Origin: Escherichia coli O127:H6 str. E2348/69
GTDB taxonomy: Bacteria > Pseudomonadota > Gammaproteobacteria > Enterobacterales > Enterobacteriaceae
Strand: one strand, 5' to 3'
Assembly (NCBI RefSeq): GCF_000026545.1
Contig: NC_011601.1
DNA length: 64,000 nt
Shown here: one piece after another, positions 8,151-43,776 of the stretch
Numbering within the stretch: the first letter of the stretch is position 1
Layout of the letters: every line of letters begins with the position of its first letter
Made by a program: the position numbers and the translations under genes
The notes under the pieces: model-generated
The model's input: the letters and a program-made list of their open reading frames with translations, nothing else
What the model was told of the DNA's origin: nothing
Databases searched by the model: none

Positions 8151-9428
8151 TTAGCTTGTCGCTAACTGTACTTGTGGTTCTTCGTCTTTAACTTTGATAA
8201 GCATCCACAGCGCAATGGCGCCAATAATGTCAAAGAAAGCCAGGGCAATAAAGAACGGCGCGAAGCCAATAATGTGAACGAATGCCCCGATAAACAGGTT
8301 GAAAATCAACTGACCGCTCCATGCACAGGCTCCTGCCATACCCACAGCGGTAGCTACTTCGTCTTTTTTGAATAGGTCACCGCCCAGAGTTGCTGCAACA
8401 GTAGAAAGACATTGATGCGAGAATGCGCCAATGCTAATCAGTAATACGGCGATGTAGGGATTTTCGACAATACTCACCAGACCAATCGTCATCATAATGA
8501 CGGCTGCAATAGTGAAGGTAATTCTTCGTGAGTTAATTAAACTCACGCCGCGATCGTGGAAGAACTTCGCGACAAAACCACTGGCTAAACAGCCGAGATC
8601 GCCCAGCAGGAAAGGCAGCCAGACGAACATGGCAATTTCTTTCAGGCTAAAATGCAGCGTTTCGACGAAGAAAATCGGTACCCAGAAGTTAATGGTTCCC
8701 CATGCCGGGTCAGCGAGAAAACGCGCGATGCCAATCCCCCAGAAATTACGTTGGCTGAGGATATGCTTGATTGACGTTTTTTCTTTCTTATCTGTTTTAA
8801 GATGCTGTTCTTGCCCAGACTCAATATAGTGGCGCTCTTCATCAGAAAGGCGTTTAGCATCTTTTGGATCTTTATAACAAAAGAACCAAAATAAAGCCGC
8901 GAGTAAAGCAAGGCTACCTGAGACAATAAACGCAAATTGCCAGCTATGAAACATAATGCACCAGGCAATCAACGGTGGAGCAAGCATCGCGCCGAGTGAG
9001 GTGCCCATATTGAAAACACCTGTCGCCACGCCACGCTCTTTTGCCGGGAACCATGTTGATGCGGTTTTTACACCCGCAGGAATTGCCGATGCTTCGCTGA
9101 AACCCATCAGGGCGCGCATAAATGCCAGACCTGACCATGTTCCTGTCAAGGCATGCCCCATTGTCGCCAGGCCCCAGATTGCGGCACATATCGCAAAACT
9201 TAACTTCAGACCCACGGTATCAATAAAGAAGCCCATTATCGGTTGCCCCAATGTATAGGCCAACTGGAATGCACTGACAATCCATGAATATTGTTCTTTG
9301 GTTATTCCGGTTGTCTCCATAATCGTTGGAGCCGCAATACCTAACGCCGTTCTGTCCAGATAATTGATTACAGTGATAAAGCATACGAGGGCAATCATAT
9401 GCCATCGATAATTCTTTATTTTATTCAT
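8151..9428 (-). CDS. MFS transporter, anion:cation symporter (ExuT/GudP-like) family; probable organic-acid importer
   Basis: 425-aa ORF, about 12 predicted TM segments, N-terminal ...YLDRTALGIAAP... typical of hexuronate/aldarate-type MFS permeases. Confidence 0.75.
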   Translation of the reverse strand: MNKIKNYRWHMIALVCFITVINYLDRTALGIAAPTIMETTGITKEQYSWIVSAFQLAYTLGQPIMGFFIDTVGLKLSFAICAAIWGLATMGHALTGTWSGLAFMRALMGFSEASAIPAGVKTASTWFPAKERGVATGVFNMGTSLGAMLAPPLIAWCIMFHSWQFAFIVSGSLALLAALFWFFCYKDPKDAKRLSDEERHYIESGQEQHLKTDKKEKTSIKHILSQRNFWGIGIARFLADPAWGTINFWVPIFFVETLHFSLKEIAMFVWLPFLLGDLGCLASGFVAKFFHDRGVSLINSRRITFTIAAVIMMTIGLVSIVENPYIAVLLISIGAFSHQCLSTVAATLGGDLFKKDEVATAVGMAGACAWSGQLIFNLFIGAFVHIIGFAPFFIALAFFDIIGAIALWMLIKVKDEEPQVQLATS

Positions 9429-9520: not shown

Positions 9521-11593
9521 TTATTGTGTGTAAATGTCTCCCTTTAAAAAGTCTGGCCAGTTTTTTTCAAAGTAAATACCGTTAATACACGGTTGAATAC
9601 GTAAAGACTTTACTTCGGTAATAAAAGAACCTTGCGAATATTGAATTGTTAATTTGTGATTTTTGTCTTCAGCGAGTTCAGAGCGAAAACGCCATTCTTC
9701 TTTTGCGCCGCGACGAGTTTGTGGTAGGCATTTGCCTTGTGGATCAATAACCATACGCGCCCCACGGCTACCACCACCAGCATCAATATAATGCGTTAAT
9801 TGTGTTAATACCGCGGCAGAAGTCAGCGCCATATGCCGCCACATAAACAGCTCGGCAACTTCACCCACATGTTTGATTGCCAATCCATGCCGTTGCACAA
9901 ATTCACTCAATAGCAGGGCATCACGAGTGGCGCGTCGGACTTTATCGGCATGGCAAATAAATCCCGCATGGTCAGACATTCGTGCCTGAATTTTTTCTCT
10001 CACAACCGACAACGGCATCCCGGTCCCGTTATCGTGCGCCTGAGTAATGATCTCTCTTATAGAAGCCAGTGCCGGAGCTGCCAGCTGTGCAATATCTCCA
10101 TCAATATTCCGCTTTTGCGTGCAACCAATAAAGCGCGCCAGACGAACAGCAAAAACCTGCCCGGCATTCAACGCCGCGCCGCCAGGTCGGGTGACGCCGT
10201 GTGTGCCAGCAACTTCCCCCACCGCAAAACAACCGGGCAGAGATGTTTGTCCCCAGATATCGACTTCAATGCCGCCATTCATGTGCTGATTATTCATGGC
10301 AAACTGCAATGGCTGCGTGATGAGATCGTAACCGTGCATCTTATACAGCGAGATAGACAGAGGATTCATTCGTTGCAGGCGTTCGATGGGCGATGGTGCC
10401 AGAGCGTCGTTATTTTCCAGATACGTGCGAACGTCGTCGTCCAGTCGATCTAATGAGAACGGCAGGTCACCCGGCACAGGTTCAGGATTGCGATTGAAAT
10501 CCATAAATACCTGACGCCCTGATTGCTGCTCTTGCGCCACCGCCATATCTAACAAGCTGGAGCCAAAATCCATTACCCGCGTGGCGTGGAATGGCCACTG
10601 ATAGCCTTTACGGAAGATGTTTGAAGCCAACTCCTGGGTGGTGCGATAGTAATCTGCGAGGAAGTTATACTCGTTGCCCCCAGCATCCACGGAATAGATA
10701 TATGGGATCACCTGTACATAGGTGCCGGACAAATTCCACGGAAACGTGCTGCGCGGTGTGCCGATACCAAACTGGCTTTCAGTCAGATTCGTTAACGTCA
10801 GACCTTCCTCCAGCGCCAGCCCCAGCGAGCCGAAACATTTGTGTGGATACACACTGTCGCGATAAAGCTCGCCAGGCCCGCCTGTTGCCAGTACCACATT
10901 GGGTGCAGTCACAATTGCCAGCCCCCATGGGTTATGGGCGCGATGACCGGTCGCGAGGATTGCCCCCGCCACACGGTCTTCACCGTTTTCGTCACGCTGA
11001 TGCAGCAGTTTAATCACTGTTGCACTGGTCAACATTGGGATAGCAAGACGCTGTACTTCTTCCAGCAGCACTTTCACCATTAACCTTGAGGTACGCGGCC
11101 CACACGAGGTTGCACGCCCGGCTTCGTCGTGGTCGGTTTGATAACGAAGAATCGCGCCATAGCGATCTTCCGGTAATTCCAGACCAAGATATTGCAACCC
11201 GCCAAGAGTGTGCAGAGAACCTACCGCTTCAACATAAGCGGTGTCGTGATCCATCGCCCCACCGCTCGCCAGTGCCTCTGCCAGTTTGGCGAAGTTGTCG
11301 CCGTTGCCCGCGGTAGCGGCGGTAAACAGTGTTTGTTTATCAGAGCCAGAACATGCCGACGTCCCCATATATAACCCGGCGGTGGCGATTAACACATTTT
11401 GCTGGCGGCGTTTAAGTTCCACAGCTGCACGCAGCCCGGCTGCACCACTGCCGACTACCAGGGCATCTGTTTTCCAGAGTGGGTAATCAACACCGTCTAC
11501 CGTGACAACCCATGCGGGGTCTGCCTGTGCAAAACCCTTTGGGAAAGTAACGTGCGTCAGCGCATCAAGGATGGTGTCATCAAGCTGACTCAT
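9521..11593 (-). CDS. FAD-binding oxidoreductase, fumarate reductase/succinate dehydrogenase flavoprotein-like (690 aa)
   Basis: N-terminal dinucleotide-binding motif DALVVGSGAAGLRAAVEL; large size; ATGA overlap with upstream CoA-transferase gene. Confidence 0.65.
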   Translation of the reverse strand: MSQLDDTILDALTHVTFPKGFAQADPAWVVTVDGVDYPLWKTDALVVGSGAAGLRAAVELKRRQQNVLIATAGLYMGTSACSGSDKQTLFTAATAGNGDNFAKLAEALASGGAMDHDTAYVEAVGSLHTLGGLQYLGLELPEDRYGAILRYQTDHDEAGRATSCGPRTSRLMVKVLLEEVQRLAIPMLTSATVIKLLHQRDENGEDRVAGAILATGHRAHNPWGLAIVTAPNVVLATGGPGELYRDSVYPHKCFGSLGLALEEGLTLTNLTESQFGIGTPRSTFPWNLSGTYVQVIPYIYSVDAGGNEYNFLADYYRTTQELASNIFRKGYQWPFHATRVMDFGSSLLDMAVAQEQQSGRQVFMDFNRNPEPVPGDLPFSLDRLDDDVRTYLENNDALAPSPIERLQRMNPLSISLYKMHGYDLITQPLQFAMNNQHMNGGIEVDIWGQTSLPGCFAVGEVAGTHGVTRPGGAALNAGQVFAVRLARFIGCTQKRNIDGDIAQLAAPALASIREIITQAHDNGTGMPLSVVREKIQARMSDHAGFICHADKVRRATRDALLLSEFVQRHGLAIKHVGEVAELFMWRHMALTSAAVLTQLTHYIDAGGGSRGARMVIDPQGKCLPQTRRGAKEEWRFRSELAEDKNHKLTIQYSQGSFITEVKSLRIQPCINGIYFEKNWPDFLKGDIYTQ

Positions 11594-13131
11594 GCATCCT
11601 CCATCGGCGTAAACAGGCTGCTTTCCATCAGACGTGGGTGCCTGATAATCGGACGGAAGGCCATGAATGGCAGAATGTCGCGCTCAATCTCTACGCCAGG
11701 GGCGATCTCAATTAATTCAACGCCTTCTGCCGTTAACTGGAATACCGCACGTTCGGTGATATACAGCACTTCCTGACCGCTTTGCTGTGCGTAGGCGGCG
11801 CTAAAGGTGATTTTTTCCACCAGGGCAACCAATTTAGGGATTTGACCTGACTGGGCGATATGCAAGCCATCTGGCGTTACATCAATCTTGCTGCCTTTGG
11901 CGTCGAACGTACCGCAAAACACCACTTTACGGGCGTTTTGTGCAATTTCGAGAAATCCGCCGGGGCCAATGAGATTGCCATTAAGATGGGATACGTTGAC
12001 GTTACCGTACCGATCCATCTCTCCCATGCCGAGGAAGGTGATATCGATACCGCCGCCACTGTAGAATTCGAATTGATCGAGTGATGGAATAATGGCATCG
12101 GCGTTACGGGCGCAGCCGAACAGAGCATCATCCAGCATCATGCCGTTATGTACACCCTGTTCTACACTCAGCCACAAACTTTGATAAGGCACGCCTTCGC
12201 GCAGCGCAACCCCAGGAATACCGCCGGGAATACCAAAGCCAAAGTTGGTTGAAGCGCCTGCCACCAGTTCCCGCGCTGCCCGACGGGCAATCAGGCGACG
12301 CACCGGATGACTAACCAGTTCAATAGCGTCGTTAGAACTTAGACGGCGATGTTGACCGCTGATGGTCAGGTCGTAACCGCCAAGATAGGTTTGCGGTTGT
12401 TCGCGGTGCTCAACGATGCCATCGACCAGAATTCCTGGTAGCTTGACCCGACGTGGTTCAATGGTACCTGCTTCCAGCACATCGCGGACCTGTACGAACA
12501 CTTTGCCGCCGCTGTTGTGTGCTGCCAGCGCCATCGAATAGCTATCCATATAAATCGCTTCTTCTTCGAGGCTAACGTTGCCTCGTGGATCGGCATAAGT
12601 GCCACGCAAAATCGCGTAATCCACTTTGAAAGGGCGATAACGAAGTTTGGTCTCACCGTCGATTTCAATCAGTTCTACCAGGTCGTCGGTAGTGCATTCA
12701 TTCGACTTACCGCCGCCATTGCGTGGATCAACAAACGATCCCAGCCCAACGTGGGTAAAAAGCCCCGGACGTCCGGCACCGATCTCCCGCAGCAGTGCCT
12801 GAATTACGCCACCAGGGAAACAGTAGGCTTCAATAGCATTGCTTTTCACCAGTTCCTGCATCTTGGGCGACCAGGTAAAATGTCCGGCAATAATGCGTTT
12901 GAGCATTTCGGCGTGAGCAAAACGGTTAGTGCCTTTGCTGTCGCGATCGCCAATACCCAGCGAGTGGATTAATGTCAGATCGCGCGGGTGTCCGGTTTGC
13001 AGGAAACGCGCTTCAATGGCGGCCAGAATATGGTCAGCTTCCACCATACCGCCGCCGTTACCGCTAATGGCAATGGTTGCGCCGTCCTGAATTTGCGCCG
13101 CCAGTGTCTCGGCGGTTGATAACTTACGCAT
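11590..13131 (-). CDS. Family I CoA-transferase (acetyl-CoA hydrolase/transferase, fused alpha/beta, YdiF/Pct-like)
   Basis: 513-aa ORF MRKLSTAETLAAQIQDGATIAISGNGGG... with the glycine-rich CoA-transferase N-terminus and duplicated domain architecture. Confidence 0.7.
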   Translation of the reverse strand: MRKLSTAETLAAQIQDGATIAISGNGGGMVEADHILAAIEARFLQTGHPRDLTLIHSLGIGDRDSKGTNRFAHAEMLKRIIAGHFTWSPKMQELVKSNAIEAYCFPGGVIQALLREIGAGRPGLFTHVGLGSFVDPRNGGGKSNECTTDDLVELIEIDGETKLRYRPFKVDYAILRGTYADPRGNVSLEEEAIYMDSYSMALAAHNSGGKVFVQVRDVLEAGTIEPRRVKLPGILVDGIVEHREQPQTYLGGYDLTISGQHRRLSSNDAIELVSHPVRRLIARRAARELVAGASTNFGFGIPGGIPGVALREGVPYQSLWLSVEQGVHNGMMLDDALFGCARNADAIIPSLDQFEFYSGGGIDITFLGMGEMDRYGNVNVSHLNGNLIGPGGFLEIAQNARKVVFCGTFDAKGSKIDVTPDGLHIAQSGQIPKLVALVEKITFSAAYAQQSGQEVLYITERAVFQLTAEGVELIEIAPGVEIERDILPFMAFRPIIRHPRLMESSLFTPMEDA

Positions 13132-13140
13132 ACAATTTCC

Positions 13141-13923
13141 TTATTGATTGTGGAAGCTCACGCCGGCTTTTTCGGCAAATGCGTGCGTCGCCTGTTGGCA
13201 ATCCTGAGTGGCGGACATTAATCCAGCCAGTAACTGGTGGGAGTAATCGGCGTGTTTATTTTCCAGCGCCAGAATCAGTTGCTTAATATGTGCCAGTGCC
13301 ACCGGACCACATTTTTCCAGCTGCGCTAACTGGTTCACCATCCAGCTTTCCACCTGTTCTTTTTCTACCACTTCATCAATTAAATTCGCTGTCTGAGCTT
13401 CCTGCGCCGTCAGGCGTTTACCCAGCATCAGCATCTGGCGACCGACCACCGGGCCAACCTGATTAAGCACGCGTTCAATGCCCATCCAGCCAGGCACCAT
13501 GCCGAGCATCACTTCCGGGTTAGAGAATTTCGCGCCGGGGCGAGCGATACGAATATCACAGCACAAGGCGAGTTCAATCCCACCGCCAATGGTATGACCG
13601 TTGAGATTTGCAACCGTTAATTGGGGTAAATTGCGCAGGCGATTAAAAACCTCGTTACCGCGTTTAATCCATTTTCTGCCCATATCTAATGGCGAATAGG
13701 CCGACCACGATTTAATATCGCCGCCCGCACAAAAGAATTTATCGCCGGTTGCCGTTAATTCGACTAATCGTAATGTGGTGTCGTTTTCAATTTCATTTAA
13801 ATAATGGTCGAGAGATTCGATCATTTCTTCATTAATAGCATGACATTTATCTTCACGGTTCAATGTCAGGCGGCAAGAAGCCGCCGCTCTGCTGAACAGA
13901 ACGGGTTGGTCATTCATGATCAT
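13141..13923 (-). CDS. Enoyl-CoA hydratase/isomerase (crotonase) family protein
   Basis: 260-aa ORF; ...DKFFCAGGDIKSW... and ...NGHTIGGGIELALCCDIRIA... match the crotonase oxyanion-hole segments. Confidence 0.75.
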   Translation of the reverse strand: MIMNDQPVLFSRAAASCRLTLNREDKCHAINEEMIESLDHYLNEIENDTTLRLVELTATGDKFFCAGGDIKSWSAYSPLDMGRKWIKRGNEVFNRLRNLPQLTVANLNGHTIGGGIELALCCDIRIARPGAKFSNPEVMLGMVPGWMGIERVLNQVGPVVGRQMLMLGKRLTAQEAQTANLIDEVVEKEQVESWMVNQLAQLEKCGPVALAHIKQLILALENKHADYSHQLLAGLMSATQDCQQATHAFAEKAGVSFHNQ

Positions 13924-13926
13924 TCC

Positions 13927-14769
13927 TTAACAATAATGTGCGATGCGATCGACGCTAATATCCAGCGTGCTGTTAATATCTTTCTGCCACCAGTACGGTG
14001 AGAATATTTCCAGTTCAATAGCGCCATTAAATCCGGCGTTTTCAACCAGCCGACGAATTGACGGAATATTGATGACACCATCTCCCGGCATTCCACGGTC
14101 ATTGACCAGATCGGTGGTCGGCACTAACCAGTCGGAAACATGAAACGCGAGGATGCGTTTTCCGGCACGCAGGATCTGACTGGCGAGATCCGGGTCCCAC
14201 CAGACATGGTAGACATCTACCGCCACGCCGAGGCCAAATTCGCCATCGGGATCGAGTTCATCACACCAGTCCAGCGCCTGACGTAACGTGCACAGACAAG
14301 AACGATCGGCAGCAGTCATCGGGTGCAGTGGCTCCAGTGCAATTGGCACGCCGACCTCTTTCGAATGTGGCAGCAACTGGCGAATCCCTTGTTTCACCTG
14401 TTCCCGTGCTTCGTACAGATCTTTTGTTCCCATTGGCAGACCGCCAACCACCTGCATATAACAGGCGGCGTTCAGTACAGCGGCGTCGTCCAGCGCCCGG
14501 CGGTTATCGTCAATCGCCAGTTTGCGCTCCGCCAGCGTCGGTGCGGTGTAGTAGGTGCTACGGCACAAACCGGAAACGTTCATGTTACTGGCAGCAAGCT
14601 GGCGGGCGATTTGCTGGAGATCTTCACTCTGCAACTCCCTGCGCCAGGGGGCAATCGCGCCAATACCGCGTGCGGCGCAGGCATCAATAATGGCGGGTAG
14701 CGGCGTTTTATAGCCCAGTGTCGCGGTATTGATACTGAATAAATCCGGGCGTTGTAACAGATCTCTCAT
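13927..14769 (-). CDS. Sugar-phosphate isomerase/epimerase (xylose isomerase-like TIM barrel) family protein, possibly a dehydratase
   Basis: 280-aa ORF with ...LAFHVSDW... and ...IELEIFS... typical of the AP-endonuclease-2/xylose-isomerase-like fold. Confidence 0.6.
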   Translation of the reverse strand: MRDLLQRPDLFSINTATLGYKTPLPAIIDACAARGIGAIAPWRRELQSEDLQQIARQLAASNMNVSGLCRSTYYTAPTLAERKLAIDDNRRALDDAAVLNAACYMQVVGGLPMGTKDLYEAREQVKQGIRQLLPHSKEVGVPIALEPLHPMTAADRSCLCTLRQALDWCDELDPDGEFGLGVAVDVYHVWWDPDLASQILRAGKRILAFHVSDWLVPTTDLVNDRGMPGDGVINIPSIRRLVENAGFNGAIELEIFSPYWWQKDINSTLDISVDRIAHYC

Positions 14770-14778
14770 GATTCAGCC

Positions 14779-15570
14779 TCAGAAGCGCGGCATACTTAAG
14801 CCGCCGTCGATGGCGACCGCCTGACCACAGGTGTAAATCAGTTTACCTTCCGCCATCGCGCGGACAGTGGAAGCAATATCAGCCGGATAACCCCAACGTC
14901 CCCACGGCACCAGACCTTTGGCAATCAGTTCGTCGTAATAGGCCGTTGCCGGAATAGTCATATCGGTTTTGATGAGACCAGGACGCACTTCATATACGCC
15001 AATTTGTTCATTACAAAGGCGAGCAGCAAACAGACGAGCAGCGGCAGAGACGGCAGTTTTGGCAATGGTATATTCGCCGCGATTCATCGCCAGCATGATG
15101 GCGTTGATGGAACTGACAAAAATAATCGAGCGGTGCGGCAGTTCTGCTTCCGGTTTCGGCTGTGCCAGTAAGCGCTTACTGAATGCCTGAGCAAGGAAGA
15201 ACGGTGCGCGGGTGTTAATGGCAATATTTTGGTCGAAGCTGTCTGGTTCGAGGTCGAGAAGGTCACCGCGTTTTTTCACTGAAATGCCTGCGTTGTTGAG
15301 CAGGCAGTCCAGACGTCCCCACTGGTTTTGCGCTGCGTCGAGCATCTCTTCATGCAGGGAGAGATCGCCCACATCAGCAGGGAAGCAAATCACTTCCACG
15401 CCTTCCGCCAGACATTCTTGTTGTGTGGCATGTAATTTTTCTACGCTATCGGCATCCGGACGATCATTAATCAGCAGATTAAATCCGCCACGCGCAAGCT
15501 CCAGCGCACAGCCTTTTCCAATACCACGTGCGGCTCCGGTAATCACGGCAACAGGACGAGTGGATTTCAT
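14779..15570 (-). CDS. Short-chain dehydrogenase/reductase (SDR)
   Basis: 263-aa ORF; cofactor motif VAVITGAARGIGKG, NNAG, and catalytic Y-x3-K (EYTIAKTAV). Confidence 0.8.
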   Translation of the reverse strand: MKSTRPVAVITGAARGIGKGCALELARGGFNLLINDRPDADSVEKLHATQQECLAEGVEVICFPADVGDLSLHEEMLDAAQNQWGRLDCLLNNAGISVKKRGDLLDLEPDSFDQNIAINTRAPFFLAQAFSKRLLAQPKPEAELPHRSIIFVSSINAIMLAMNRGEYTIAKTAVSAAARLFAARLCNEQIGVYEVRPGLIKTDMTIPATAYYDELIAKGLVPWGRWGYPADIASTVRAMAEGKLIYTCGQAVAIDGGLSMPRF

Positions 15571-15639
15571 ACAATAGCTCTCTTTTTTTTGAATTTTGTT
15601 TCCTTAGTGATGATTAGCTTGCGACTGGAGGGTAAAAAG

Positions 15640-15661
15640 ATCAACCATCTAGTTGGTTGAT
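15640..15661. promoter_or_regulatory. Inverted repeat ATCAACCA-N6-TGGTTGAT in the divergent SDR/TetR intergenic region; candidate TetR operator
   Basis: 8-bp perfect arms read directly; about 70 bp upstream of the SDR start and about 120 bp upstream of the TetR start. Confidence 0.45.
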
Positions 15662-15783
15662 ATGCGATGGCGATCACAGGACATTTGATAACCTGATGAA
15701 AGTACAAGTTTTTGCCCTTTTTTCTGAAGCTGAAATCAAATCAGGTTATGATAGTCACCACGAAGAGGTCGTGGGGAAGCGTT

Positions 15784-16431
15784 ATGTATCTTGATACCAG
15801 CAACGTACAGAGCCTGAAAGAAAAGCTGCTGTTATGCGCGGTTAATGAATTTGCCGAATATGGTTACGAAGGGGCCAGAGTCGATAATATCGTCAAGGCC
15901 GCGGGGTGCAGTAAACAGACGGTTTATCACCACTTTGGTAATAAAGAAAATTTATTTATCGAAGTACTGGAATATACCTGGAACGATATTCGACAAAAAG
16001 AAAAGGCCCTTGATTTCTCAGATCTTCCGCCACAGAAAGCCATTGAGAAAATAATCGATTTTACATGGGATTATTATATTTCTAATCCCTGGTTTTTAAA
16101 AATTGTGCATAGTGAAAATCAAAGTAAGGGTGTGCATTATGCAAAATCACAGCGTCTTTTAGAAATTAACCATGCGCACTTGCAGTTAATGGAATCCTTA
16201 TTGGATGAAGGGAAGAAACAAAATATTTTTAAGCCAGATATCGACCCATTGCAGGTGAATATTAATATTGCTGCGCTTGGGGGATATTATTTGATCAACC
16301 AGCATACGCTTGGCCTGGTTTATCACATCAGTATGGTTTCACCGCAGGCACTGGAAGCCAGACGTAAGGTCATCAAAGAGACAATCCTTAGCTGGCTTTT
16401 GGTTGACCCTTCATCTACCGCGCGCGAATAA
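15784..16431 (+). CDS. TetR/AcrR-family transcriptional regulator
   Basis: Internal ATG of ORF 15712-16431; N-terminal ...[44 protein letters not shown]... is a canonical TetR HTH. Confidence 0.8.
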
Positions 16432-17919: not shown

Positions 17920-19469
17920 CTGTCTCTTATACACAAATCCCCACCCGGGGATTTGTGATGTCTGTCAGTCTGCTTTAGGGGGACTCTTTCCATCCGGTAG
18001 TTTCCTTCCTCCCCGGCAGCGATTTTTTGAACTTTTTCCTCACCTGTTGATCTTCTCTTATATTTCATTTTCTTCGGGTCTGTTATGGTACTTTCTGATT
18101 GTTATTCATGGGCTAACGAGCAGTTTGGACATGCCCGTCTCGGTGATCCGCGTCGTACACGACGCCTTGTGTCACTGGCCTCTTCTCTCGCTCAGCATGC
18201 AGGTCTTTCTATTGTGAAATCATCCCAGTCCACTGCTCAGGTTGAAGGTGCGTACCGCCTGATACGTAACCCGTCTGTGTCCCCGCAAGCCATTGCCGAA
18301 GCCGGATTTACCGCCACTGTAAGGGCATGTGAGGCTCATCCGCTGCTCCTCGCGCTGGAAGACACCACCACCATTAACTTCAGTCACAGTACGGCATCTG
18401 ATGACCTGGGGAATACCACCACTAACCCGAAGACGCGCGGGCTGCTGGCTCACTCTGTCCTGATGTACGCCCCCGACAGCGCCCTGCCAGTCGGTCTTAT
18501 CGAACAGCAGCGCTGGAGTCGTGCCACGGACACCTACGGTGTTAAGCACCAGCGAAAAGAACGTCCCTATGAAGAAAAAGAAAGTTACCGCTGGCAGCAG
18601 GCTTCGGAGCGCATGGCCGAACGGCTGGGGGAGATACAGAAACGGGTAATCACTGTCTGTGACCGGGAAGCGGATATCTGGCATTACCTGCATTATAAAG
18701 TCAGCCACGGGCAGCGCTTCGTGGTGCGTGCAGCACAGAATCGCCGGCTGGAAGAAGCACCCGGCAAGCTCTTCGAACTGCCGGAAGTCCTGGCAACCGC
18801 GGGAAGCCACACGCTGAATGTGATGCAAAAAGGCGGGCGGGCAGCCCGCCAGGCCCGGATGTTCATCAGTTACAGCGAAGTCAGCATAAAAAATCCCGAC
18901 AACAGCGGCCAGGCGCTCCCGCTCACGTATGTCTGTTGCCGGGAGCAGGCAGAGGACGGCGCCTGCTGGCATCTGCTGACGTCAGAAAAAGTGGCGAGTG
19001 CCGCCGATGCGCGACGTATCGTCAGCCATTACGAGCGACGCTGGCTGATAGAGGAATACCACAAGGCGTGGAAAAGTGGTGGTACATGTGTGGAATCGCT
19101 GTGAATGCAGACCCGGGATAACCTCGAGCGCATGGTGGTTATCAAGGCGTTTATCGCGGTGCGGGTGCTGGGCCTGCGGCAGGGCGGTATCAGTGAAGAA
19201 ACACAAAATGACAGCTGTGAGAAAATACTGACGCCGACAGAGTGGAAACTGCTGTGGGTTAAGCTGGAAGGAAAACCGCTTCCGTCACAGATGCCGACAC
19301 TGAAATGGGCCTGTCTGAAACTGGCGAAACTGGGGCGATGGCATGACAGCAAACGCACCGGTCGCCCCGGTTGGGTAGTCATGTGGGATGGCTGGTTCAG
19401 ACTTCAGGATATGGTTGAGGGTTACCTGGTGATGAAGTCTCTTGATCAGGAGATCTGATCAAGAGACAG
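17920..19469 (+). mobile_element. IS50/Tn5-like insertion sequence (IS4 family) with diverged transposase
   Basis: Left end CTGTCTCTTATACACAAAT (2 mismatches to the Tn5 outside end as I recall it); right end is the exact reverse complement of the Tn5 inside end CTGTCTCTTGATCAGATCT; flanked by direct repeat cgaaccag; internal Tn5-Tnp-like ORF. Confidence 0.85.
18085..19458 (+). pseudogene. Tn5-like transposase interrupted by an in-frame TGA at 19102-19104 (ORFs 18085-19104 and 19105-19458, same frame)
   Basis: N-fragment LGDPRRTRRLV...EGAYRLIRNP...LALEDTT...CDREADI...RRWLIEEYHKAWKSG closely resembles Tn5 Tnp including the DDE positions; C-fragment DNLERMVV...AVRVLGLRQ... continues the alignment after the stop. 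Confidence 0.7.
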
Positions 19470-42777: not shown

Positions 42778-43776
42778 TTACGCGTCCGGGAACTCACGGA
42801 TAAAGCGTTCGACATCTTCAACCATATGGTCGTTGCCGACAAAGAACGAACGGCGCTGGTGCAGGGTTTCCGGGATAATATCCAGAATACGCTCTTTGCC
42901 ATCGCTCGCTTTACCGCCCGCTTGTTCCGCCAGGAATGCCATCGGGTTGCACTCATACAGTAAACGTAGTTTACCGTCCGGGTGGCTGGCGGTGCTTGGG
43001 TAGAGATAAATACCGCCTTTCAGCAGGTTACGGTGGAAATCCGCGACCAGTGAACCGATATAACGTGAGGTATACGGGCGGTTGGTGGATTTATCTTCTT
43101 CCTGGCAGAATTTAATGTACTTCTTCACCCCGTTCGGAAACTTAATGTAGTTTCCTTCGTTGATGGAGTAGGTTTTGCCTTTCTCCGGGAAGCGCATCCG
43201 TTCCTGGCACAGGCAGAAAACACCCAGCGAAGGATCATAAGTAAAGGCGTGAACACCGCATCCGGTGGTGTAAACCAGCATAGTAGAGGAGCCGTATACC
43301 ACGTAACCTGCCGCAACCTGTTTGTTACCAGGCTGGAGGAAATCTTCTTCCGTTACCGGCGTGCCAACAGGCGTAACGCGGCGGTAGATGGAGAAAATGG
43401 TACCGACAGAGACGTTAACATCGATGTTGGACGAGCCATCCAGTGGGTCCATCAGCACCACGTATTTTGCGTGTTCACAGCCTTCAAAGACGACAATCTC
43501 ATCTTCTTCTTCAGAGGCAATGCCCGCAACGATATCGCGTGCTTTCAGTGCGGCTTTCAGTTTCTCATTAGCGAACAGGTCGAGTTTCTGCTGAACCTCG
43601 CCCTGCACGTTCTCAGCACCGCTGGCACCCAGGATATCAACCAGTCCTGCTTTGTTGATATCGCGATGGATAATCTTGGCGCCCAGTTTTATTGCCGACA
43701 GCAAAGCAGTGAGCTCACCGGTAGCATGAGAAAACTCGTGCTGCTTTTCGACAATAAATTCACCTAACGTTTTCAT
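42778..43776 (-). CDS. fbp: Fructose-1,6-bisphosphatase class 1
   Basis: 332-aa product [45 protein letters not shown]... Confidence 0.97.

Follow-up and report, generated by a model that had tools for sequence, protein, structure and literature searches.

A conserved palindrome between a CRP site and a core promoter is the probable operator of a YtfA-type TetR regulator in Escherichia coli

We analysed a stretch of 64,000 nucleotides of Escherichia coli O127:H6 str. E2348/69 (contig NC_011601.1), hereafter the window, and concentrated on the gap between an operon and a divergent gene of the TetR family. A palindrome in this gap is, in all probability, the operator of the adjacent YtfA-type TetR. 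It has a CRP site on one side and, on the other, the core promoter predicted for a leftward CoA-dependent catabolic operon that runs from a short-chain dehydrogenase (SDR) to an MFS transporter, and would cover the -35 element of that promoter. Comparison with related loci gives good support to the view that this is a previously undescribed operator of an uncharacterised TetR. The arrangement is an ordinary kind of bacterial switch.

The gap extends from the SDR start codon (15570, minus strand) to the TetR ATG (15784), i.e. exactly over positions 15571-15783 (213 bp). The genes on its two sides were delimited from open reading frames, Pfam, NCBIfam and RefSeq annotation for the operon, and from Pfam and RefSeq annotation for the regulator:

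15784-16431, plus strand: TetR/AcrR-family regulator, 215 aa
8151-15570, minus strand: divergent operon of six genes, SDR first
14779-15570, minus strand: SDR, first gene of the apparent operon
13927-14769, minus strand: xylose-isomerase-like TIM barrel, operon
13141-13923, minus strand: enoyl-CoA hydratase, operon
11590-13131, minus strand: fused CoA transferase, operon
9521-11593, minus strand: fumarate-reductase-like FAD oxidoreductase, 690 aa, operon
8151-9428, minus strand: MFS transporter, operon

The regulator is the full-length form of E. coli ytfA. It has the architecture of the TetR family: an N-terminal TetR helix-turn-helix (Pfam TetR_N, PF00440, 1.9e-14, 53.6 bits for a cut-off of 24) followed by a C-terminal ligand and dimerisation domain (TetR_C_29, PF17938, 1.8e-30, 106 bits for a cut-off of 26.2). 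Residues 19-62, which make up the helix-turn-helix, are nearly invariant across orthologues. The protein falls in no NCBIfam equivalog (for example, it scores 47.6 bits against the FadR equivalog, whose cut-off is 200), and its closest full-length solved structure, 3npi, is an uncharacterised chain. Our search of the literature on ytfA returned no functional study of the regulator, apart from a table of CRP ChIP targets (PMC4287617). The 3' end of tetR and the convergent gene ytfB share 17 bp (16415-16431).

The order of the regulator-proximal genes (SDR, TIM barrel, enoyl-CoA hydratase and usually CoA transferase) is kept in the orthologous loci examined, as far as these reach. Of 5426 complete E. 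coli genomes, 1585 (about 29%) have the intergenic region, in variants that go down to ~82% identity. Its carriers include EPEC, ExPEC and ETEC strains, and the island is also found in some Salmonella. K-12 lacks the operon and retains the ytfA remnant alone. The distal transporter varies between E. coli lineages: a three-gene TRAP system takes the place of the MFS permease in some of them (locus L003, E. coli ZYB39, 65-2909; compare 8151-9428 in the window), which points to a carboxylate substrate. The locus tags STM4390-95 had been guessed for the orthologous region of Salmonella and were rejected, as STM4392 is priB.

The elements that we recognise or predict within the gap are the following, each with the evidence on which it was placed:

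15616-15621, minus strand: predicted -10 of the operon promoter, CAAGCT (CATnTT in other genera), inferred from invariant bases
15639-15644, minus strand: predicted -35 of the operon promoter, TTGATC, within the operator's left arm; spacing of 17 bp to the -10 above and conservation
15640-15661: first inverted repeat (IR1), candidate TetR operator, 22 bp, ATCAACCA-TCTAGT-TGGTTGAT; sequence and conservation
15663-15678, centre 15670.5: CRP site, TGCGA-TGGCGA-TCACA (TGCGATGGCGATCACA; minus strand TGTGATCGCCATCGCA); consensus match and conservation
15688-15749: second inverted repeat (IR2), ATAACCTGAT at 15688-15697 and ATCAGGTTAT at 15740-15749; present, rejected as a functional structure
15689-15700: conserved block TAAC-N4-(A/T)TG(A/T); three invariant columns (A, T, G) in 16 orthologues
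15747-15752, plus strand: predicted -10 of tetR, TATGAT (TATAGT or TATAAT elsewhere, often preceded by TGn); conservation

The initial annotation had described an 8-bp inverted repeat at about 15640-15661, between the divergent SDR operon and the TetR gene, and this description is exact. The arms of IR1 (15640-15647 and 15654-15661) are perfect over 8 bp and are separated by TCTAGT. The CTAG at its centre is self-complementary too, so that the arms can be extended to 11 nt at 91%. Within them are the half-sites of the family, TCAACCA (15641-15647) and TGGTTGA (15654-15660). Taken by itself, such a repeat is no more than slightly unusual. When the 213-bp region was shuffled 2000 times with its dinucleotides kept, 3.6% of the trials gave a perfect inverted repeat with arms of 8 bp or more and a loop of 10 or less, and the 64-kb window contains 22 perfect repeats of this kind. 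The figure corresponding to IR2 (at least 10 bp, loop of 11-80) is 1.5% of 2000 shuffles. Hence, neither repeat is compelling from the sequence of the window alone, and it is conservation that tells them apart.

We compared orthologous loci, taken as those in which a TetR gene diverges from the first genes of the operon (SDR, TIM barrel and further genes where the locus allowed). They come from Escherichia, Citrobacter, Klebsiella spallanzanii, Salmonella, Lelliottia, Leminorella, Entomohabitans and five metagenomic or Salmonella-labelled contigs, and their TetR proteins are 57-67% identical to the regulator of the window. IR1 is the best-conserved intergenic block in 16-18 of these loci, down to 57% TetR identity. 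Averaged over its columns, identity reaches 0.91 (left arm, 0.98), compared with 0.68 for the intergenic region as a whole, and the best-conserved 10-bp segments of the region are all inside it. In the alignment of 16 sequences, the invariant columns are the IR1 core CAACC...GTTGGTT, the T..G and TC of the CRP element, bases 15616 and 15620, the T, A and T of TATGAT, three bases in 15689-15700 and both start codons. Conservation on this scale excludes a chance origin of IR1. Four of the arm pairs never vary and a single double change was found across the orthologues. The arms are thus kept as sequence and not through compensatory change, as expected of a site bound by protein. In one divergent orthologue (L090), the motif occurs twice within the intergenic region.

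The centre of the operator (15649-15652) is CTAG in some lineages and CTGG in E. coli E69, E. whittamii, E. albertii and H10407; this swap is the substitution expected of the bias of very-short-patch repair against CTAG, and the CTGG form turns the register CAACCA-TC-TGGTTG into a perfect palindrome. GATC (Dam) sites are present at 15639-15642, in the operator and the predicted -35, and at 15672-15675, in the CRP site, and are kept in most enterobacterial orthologues.

The motif also accompanies the regulator outside the enterobacteria. Homologues of the TetR (33-40% identity) are found in Belnapia (four species), Tistrella, Ferrovibrio, Oceanibaculum, a Xanthobacteraceae MAG and another alphaproteobacterial MAG, which makes at least five alphaproteobacterial lineages; the G+C content of these genomes is 61-73%. 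Four of these loci are from related Belnapia species, and the set is not fully independent. The neighbours of the gene are there NMT1-type ABC transporter genes or an amidase, with no gene of the E. coli operon nearby. Each locus has TCAACCAnnTGGTTGA or CAACCAttTGGTTGGTTGAT directly upstream of the TetR gene, and most have a second copy between its end and the following gene. The E. coli and the alphaproteobacterial sites have in common the half-sites TCAACCA and TGGTTGA; by manual count, 20 of 22 positions are the same in the upstream site of Belnapia and in that of E. coli E69. The recognition helix K44-Q45-x-V/I-Y48-H49-H50-F51-G52-N53-K54-E55 is maintained across these homologues. A loose pattern of the motif had four scattered matches in ~450 kb of other loci from the homologue search, none of them at the TetR gene. 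The motif follows the regulator, not the operon genes, and is for this reason likely to be its cognate operator. That IR1 might be a TetR operator had been proposed from its position, and the proposal is now supported both by its rank as the most conserved intergenic block and by the same half-sites beside distant homologues in unrelated contexts.

We also scanned metagenomes for the perfect 16-mer. Among the at least 120 contigs listed, four encode a TetR-like protein, and in all four the gene is 10-161 bp from the motif. The other 116 have no such TetR nearby and count as unrelated chance 16-mers. For a collection of this size, the 16-mer alone is therefore not diagnostic. Searches of the literature for the half-site strings together with TetR or operator returned unrelated papers only, and we found no characterised member or operator for the TetR subfamily bearing TCAACCAnnTGGTTGA. 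Elsewhere in the window, matches of 11-12 out of 14 to the 16-mer start at 9861, 42818, 56876 and 61390. Those at 9861-9876 and 42818-42833 (12/14) are inside predicted ORFs, one of which is the FAD oxidoreductase gene, and we take them as chance occurrences; about 0.2 would be expected by a rough estimate with equal base frequencies.

The geometry of the site in the window differs from that of the alphaproteobacterial 16-mers. The latter have 7-bp arms and a 2-bp spacer, whereas the perfect arms in the window are 6 bp apart, as a result of a duplication of GGTT (TGGTTGGTTGA in most strains) that is also present in the upstream sites of Belnapia. As a consequence, the operator of the window contains two 16-bp registers, offset by 4 bp, which score 12/14 and 11/14 against the 16-mer. 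With a spacer of 6 instead of 2 bp, the two perfect halves cannot both be contacted by one dimer in the manner of the 16-mers. We advance only tentatively, and would rather expect to be wrong, that the operator goes beyond a standard single-dimer site, with either two dimers on overlapping registers or an altered geometry coupled to the -35 and CRP, and that it would in this way gate a CoA-dependent catabolic island.

The sequence adjoining IR1 at 15663-15678, which the initial annotation did not mention, is by its composition and conservation a CRP site. It has 9 of the 10 core bases of TGTGA-N6-TCACA and is the sole site in the window with at most one mismatch from the consensus. Its half-sites are conserved (mean column identity of 0.89 and 0.86) and its spacer is not (0.65). 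CRP ChIP-seq in ETEC H10407 gave the orthologous site, TGTGATCACTATCGCA, between "ETEC-specific" and ytfA, as a high-confidence target (PMC4287617, Table 1). We confirmed that this sequence is directly beside the operator in H10407.

A consensus sigma-70 promoter scan of 15450-15900 returned none at the thresholds used, and the model of the operon promoter rests accordingly on the invariant positions of the alignment. On the minus strand, when aligned on the operator, all orthologues present TTGATC-N17-CA(T/A)nnT, and GATCAA, the complement of the predicted -35 region, is kept in nearly all of them. The A at -11 (15620) and the T at -7 (15616) are invariant in 16 orthologues, while their flanks are randomised. 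The predicted -10, CAAGCT, is weak (2-3 matches out of 6). We infer from the invariant bases a leftward class I CRP promoter, with a predicted transcription start near 15609, the CRP centre at -61.5 and the operator centre at -41.5. A class II promoter is possible as well, with CRP at -40.5 and GATCTT (15642-15637) as the -10, but it fits the invariant positions less well than class I. Under either class, the operator would overlap the core promoter of the operon. In operons of the ZYB39 type, a 5-bp deletion removes the predicted -10 and makes AATCAT at a spacing of 18 bp.

The position of the repeat between divergent genes had led to the suggestion that a single operator controls both promoters. 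Our results do not bear this out: the operator is over the predicted operon promoter and the predicted -10 of tetR is elsewhere. In TATGAT (15747-15752), T1, A2 and T6 are invariant in 16 orthologues and the mean identity is 0.90. The edge of the operator is ~86 bp upstream of this -10, roughly at -108 from the predicted tetR start, and we found near tetR no second operator-like site above 8/14 against the 16-mer. A tetR promoter devoid of an operator gives no indication of autoregulation in this lineage. It is true that divergent TetR systems often autoregulate, that the alphaproteobacterial homologues have a motif site directly at the TetR start, and that a weak plus-strand promoter, TTGATA (15657-15662)-N17-GACATT, can be drawn over the right arm of IR1. 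However, this alternative promoter is not conserved, in contrast to the distant -10, and we regard control of tetR by the same operator as unlikely. In the Entomohabitans locus (L010, 3700-3990), an insertion of ~210 bp separates the operator and CRP block from tetR, and a new perfect TATAAT is found near the tetR start. The predicted 5' untranslated region of tetR has a small hairpin at 15755-15777 (CCACGA/UCGUGG) that overlaps the G-run of the Shine-Dalgarno sequence; with z = -0.08, it is no better than shuffles.

Could IR1 be bound by a protein other than the adjacent TetR? RutR is the obvious example, as its box TTGACCAnnTGGTCAA agrees in geometry and in the ACCAnnTGGT core (PMC2475637), and as RutR is among the solved structures that align almost full-length with this TetR family, behind 3npi. 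Yet the best register of IR1 matches the box at only 8 of 14 positions (manual count), on a par with the weakest motif-bearing site of the RutR ChIP table, while the sites of the RutR ChIP table match it at 7-13 out of 14, mostly at 9 or more (PMC2475637; manual count), so that IR1 does not class as a RutR site. The regulator itself scores 37.8 bits against the RutR equivalog of NCBIfam, for a cut-off of 368. Moreover, the motif moves with this TetR into Alphaproteobacteria and into varied enterobacterial genome contexts. Binding by RutR or by another host factor is thus very improbable as an explanation of IR1.

The repeat may also be read as RNA, i.e. as an intrinsic terminator or attenuator on the minus strand. 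A scan flagged it as terminator-like (8-bp stem and 6-nt loop, followed by CTTTTTACCC), and its fold has -9 kcal/mol and z = -3.6. Several observations oppose this reading, to which we give hardly any credence. G-C pairs make up 3 of the 8 pairs of the stem, short of the G+C-rich stem of an intrinsic terminator, and the arms vary in sequence too little, and essentially without compensation, for a conserved structure. Lelliottia (GATCTAATTATG) and Entomohabitans (GATCCAGATTTA) lack the T-run. There is no close upstream gene to terminate on the minus strand, where the sole one, ytfB, ends within tetR at a distance of ~750 bp, and the hairpin precedes the predicted start of the operon. Finally, the motif is found elsewhere beside TetR genes with a different orientation and context.

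The second repeat had been proposed to form a leader structure. The repeat exists, and its arms are perfect over 10 nt instead of 8, but the positions given for it were off by about 7 bp: AACCTGAT occupies 15690-15697 (given as 15683-15690) and ATCAGGTT occupies 15740-15747 (given as 15748-15755). That IR2 is a regulatory leader or a second operator is the faintest of the possibilities considered here, in spite of its chance probability of about 0.015 as a perfect 10-bp repeat and of a plus-strand RNA fold of -18.9 kcal/mol (z = -2.9), since 8 of the 16 orthologues leave its four central pairs unpaired and compensatory changes are absent, its cells are paired across orthologues in 72.5% of cases for 71.0% in shuffles, and its region matches no Rfam family at E up to 1. 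Its right arm is on the tetR -10, which places the repeat upstream of both predicted transcripts, so that it is expected in neither. The alignment leads us to regard IR2 as without function. The block at 15689-15700, between the CRP site and the tetR promoter, could be the site of another factor.

The reading of IR1 as the operator of the YtfA-type TetR suggests how the locus might work. Being over the predicted -35, the operator would repress the SDR-to-MFS operon: without inducer, TetR dimers would occupy it and deny the -35 to RNA polymerase, and would also bar CRP at -61.5 from reaching the polymerase. A substrate of the pathway or a CoA-thioester intermediate would bind the C-terminal domain and release TetR from the DNA. 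Once TetR has gone, cAMP-CRP would activate the weak class I promoter (-10 CAAGCT, start near 15609), whereas tetR would be transcribed from its own promoter ~100 bp away. The CoA transferase of the operon makes a CoA thioester or the free acid a first guess for the inducer, and given the weak sequence resemblance to other TetRs on which it draws, it is no firmer than a guess. FadR/YsiA, KstR2 and PfmR/PaaR are acyl-CoA-responsive TetRs. The proteins of this group (FadR/YsiA of Bacillus, KstR2, PfmR/PaaR of Thermus) are among the nearest solved or curated sequence relatives of the regulator and, like them, it is beside genes of CoA-thioester metabolism, but it scores far under all the family cut-offs.

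Many of these traits are familiar from TetR/tetO, QacR/IR1 and AcrR/acrAB. As in these systems, a regulator with a helix-turn-helix and a ligand domain is divergent from its target operon, and an A/T-rich palindrome is over the predicted core promoter, so that induction by release upon ligand binding would be expected. Unlike in these systems, the operator is over the operon promoter only, the promoter of the regulator being ~100 bp off and without an operator, and the half-sites are 6 bp apart, with a GGTT duplication that creates two overlapping registers. The RutR box resembles the 16-mer of the subfamily in its 16 bp, 7-bp arms, 2-bp spacer and ACCAnnTGGT core; the two differ in their outer bases (TTGA in RutR, TCAA in the subfamily), and the target genes here are unrelated to pyrimidine catabolism. 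The promoter as modelled would resemble lac P1 (class I, CRP at -61.5): the CRP centre would be at the same distance from the start, the hexamers are weak, and a specific repressor would add substrate control to catabolite control. In contrast to lac P1, the repressor site is between CRP and the predicted -10, over the predicted -35 and not over the start, and the transcription start is a predicted one.

These results provide a regulatory model for an unstudied accessory operon, in which a candidate operator is combined with a predicted promoter and with a CRP site whose orthologue is occupied in vivo. They also define a putative recognition motif, TCAACCAnnTGGTTGA, for a TetR subfamily (Pfam TetR_C_29) whose nearest structure is 3npi. 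The pair of operator and repressor could be used as a reporter in a screen for inducers, which would lead to the substrate of the pathway.

Two further observations concern an IS element elsewhere in the window. A single-base difference from E2348/69 CP059840.2, the only one in 18.2 kb, creates an in-frame TGA at 19102-19104 (within 18085-19458) that splits the transposase ORF of ISEc13 (IS4-like) into parts of 339 aa and 117 aa. The end of the element (19437-19467) has a perfect 13-bp inverted repeat, GTCTCTTGATCAG-GAGAT-CTGATCAAGAGAC, which resembles end sequences of the IS50/Tn5 type.
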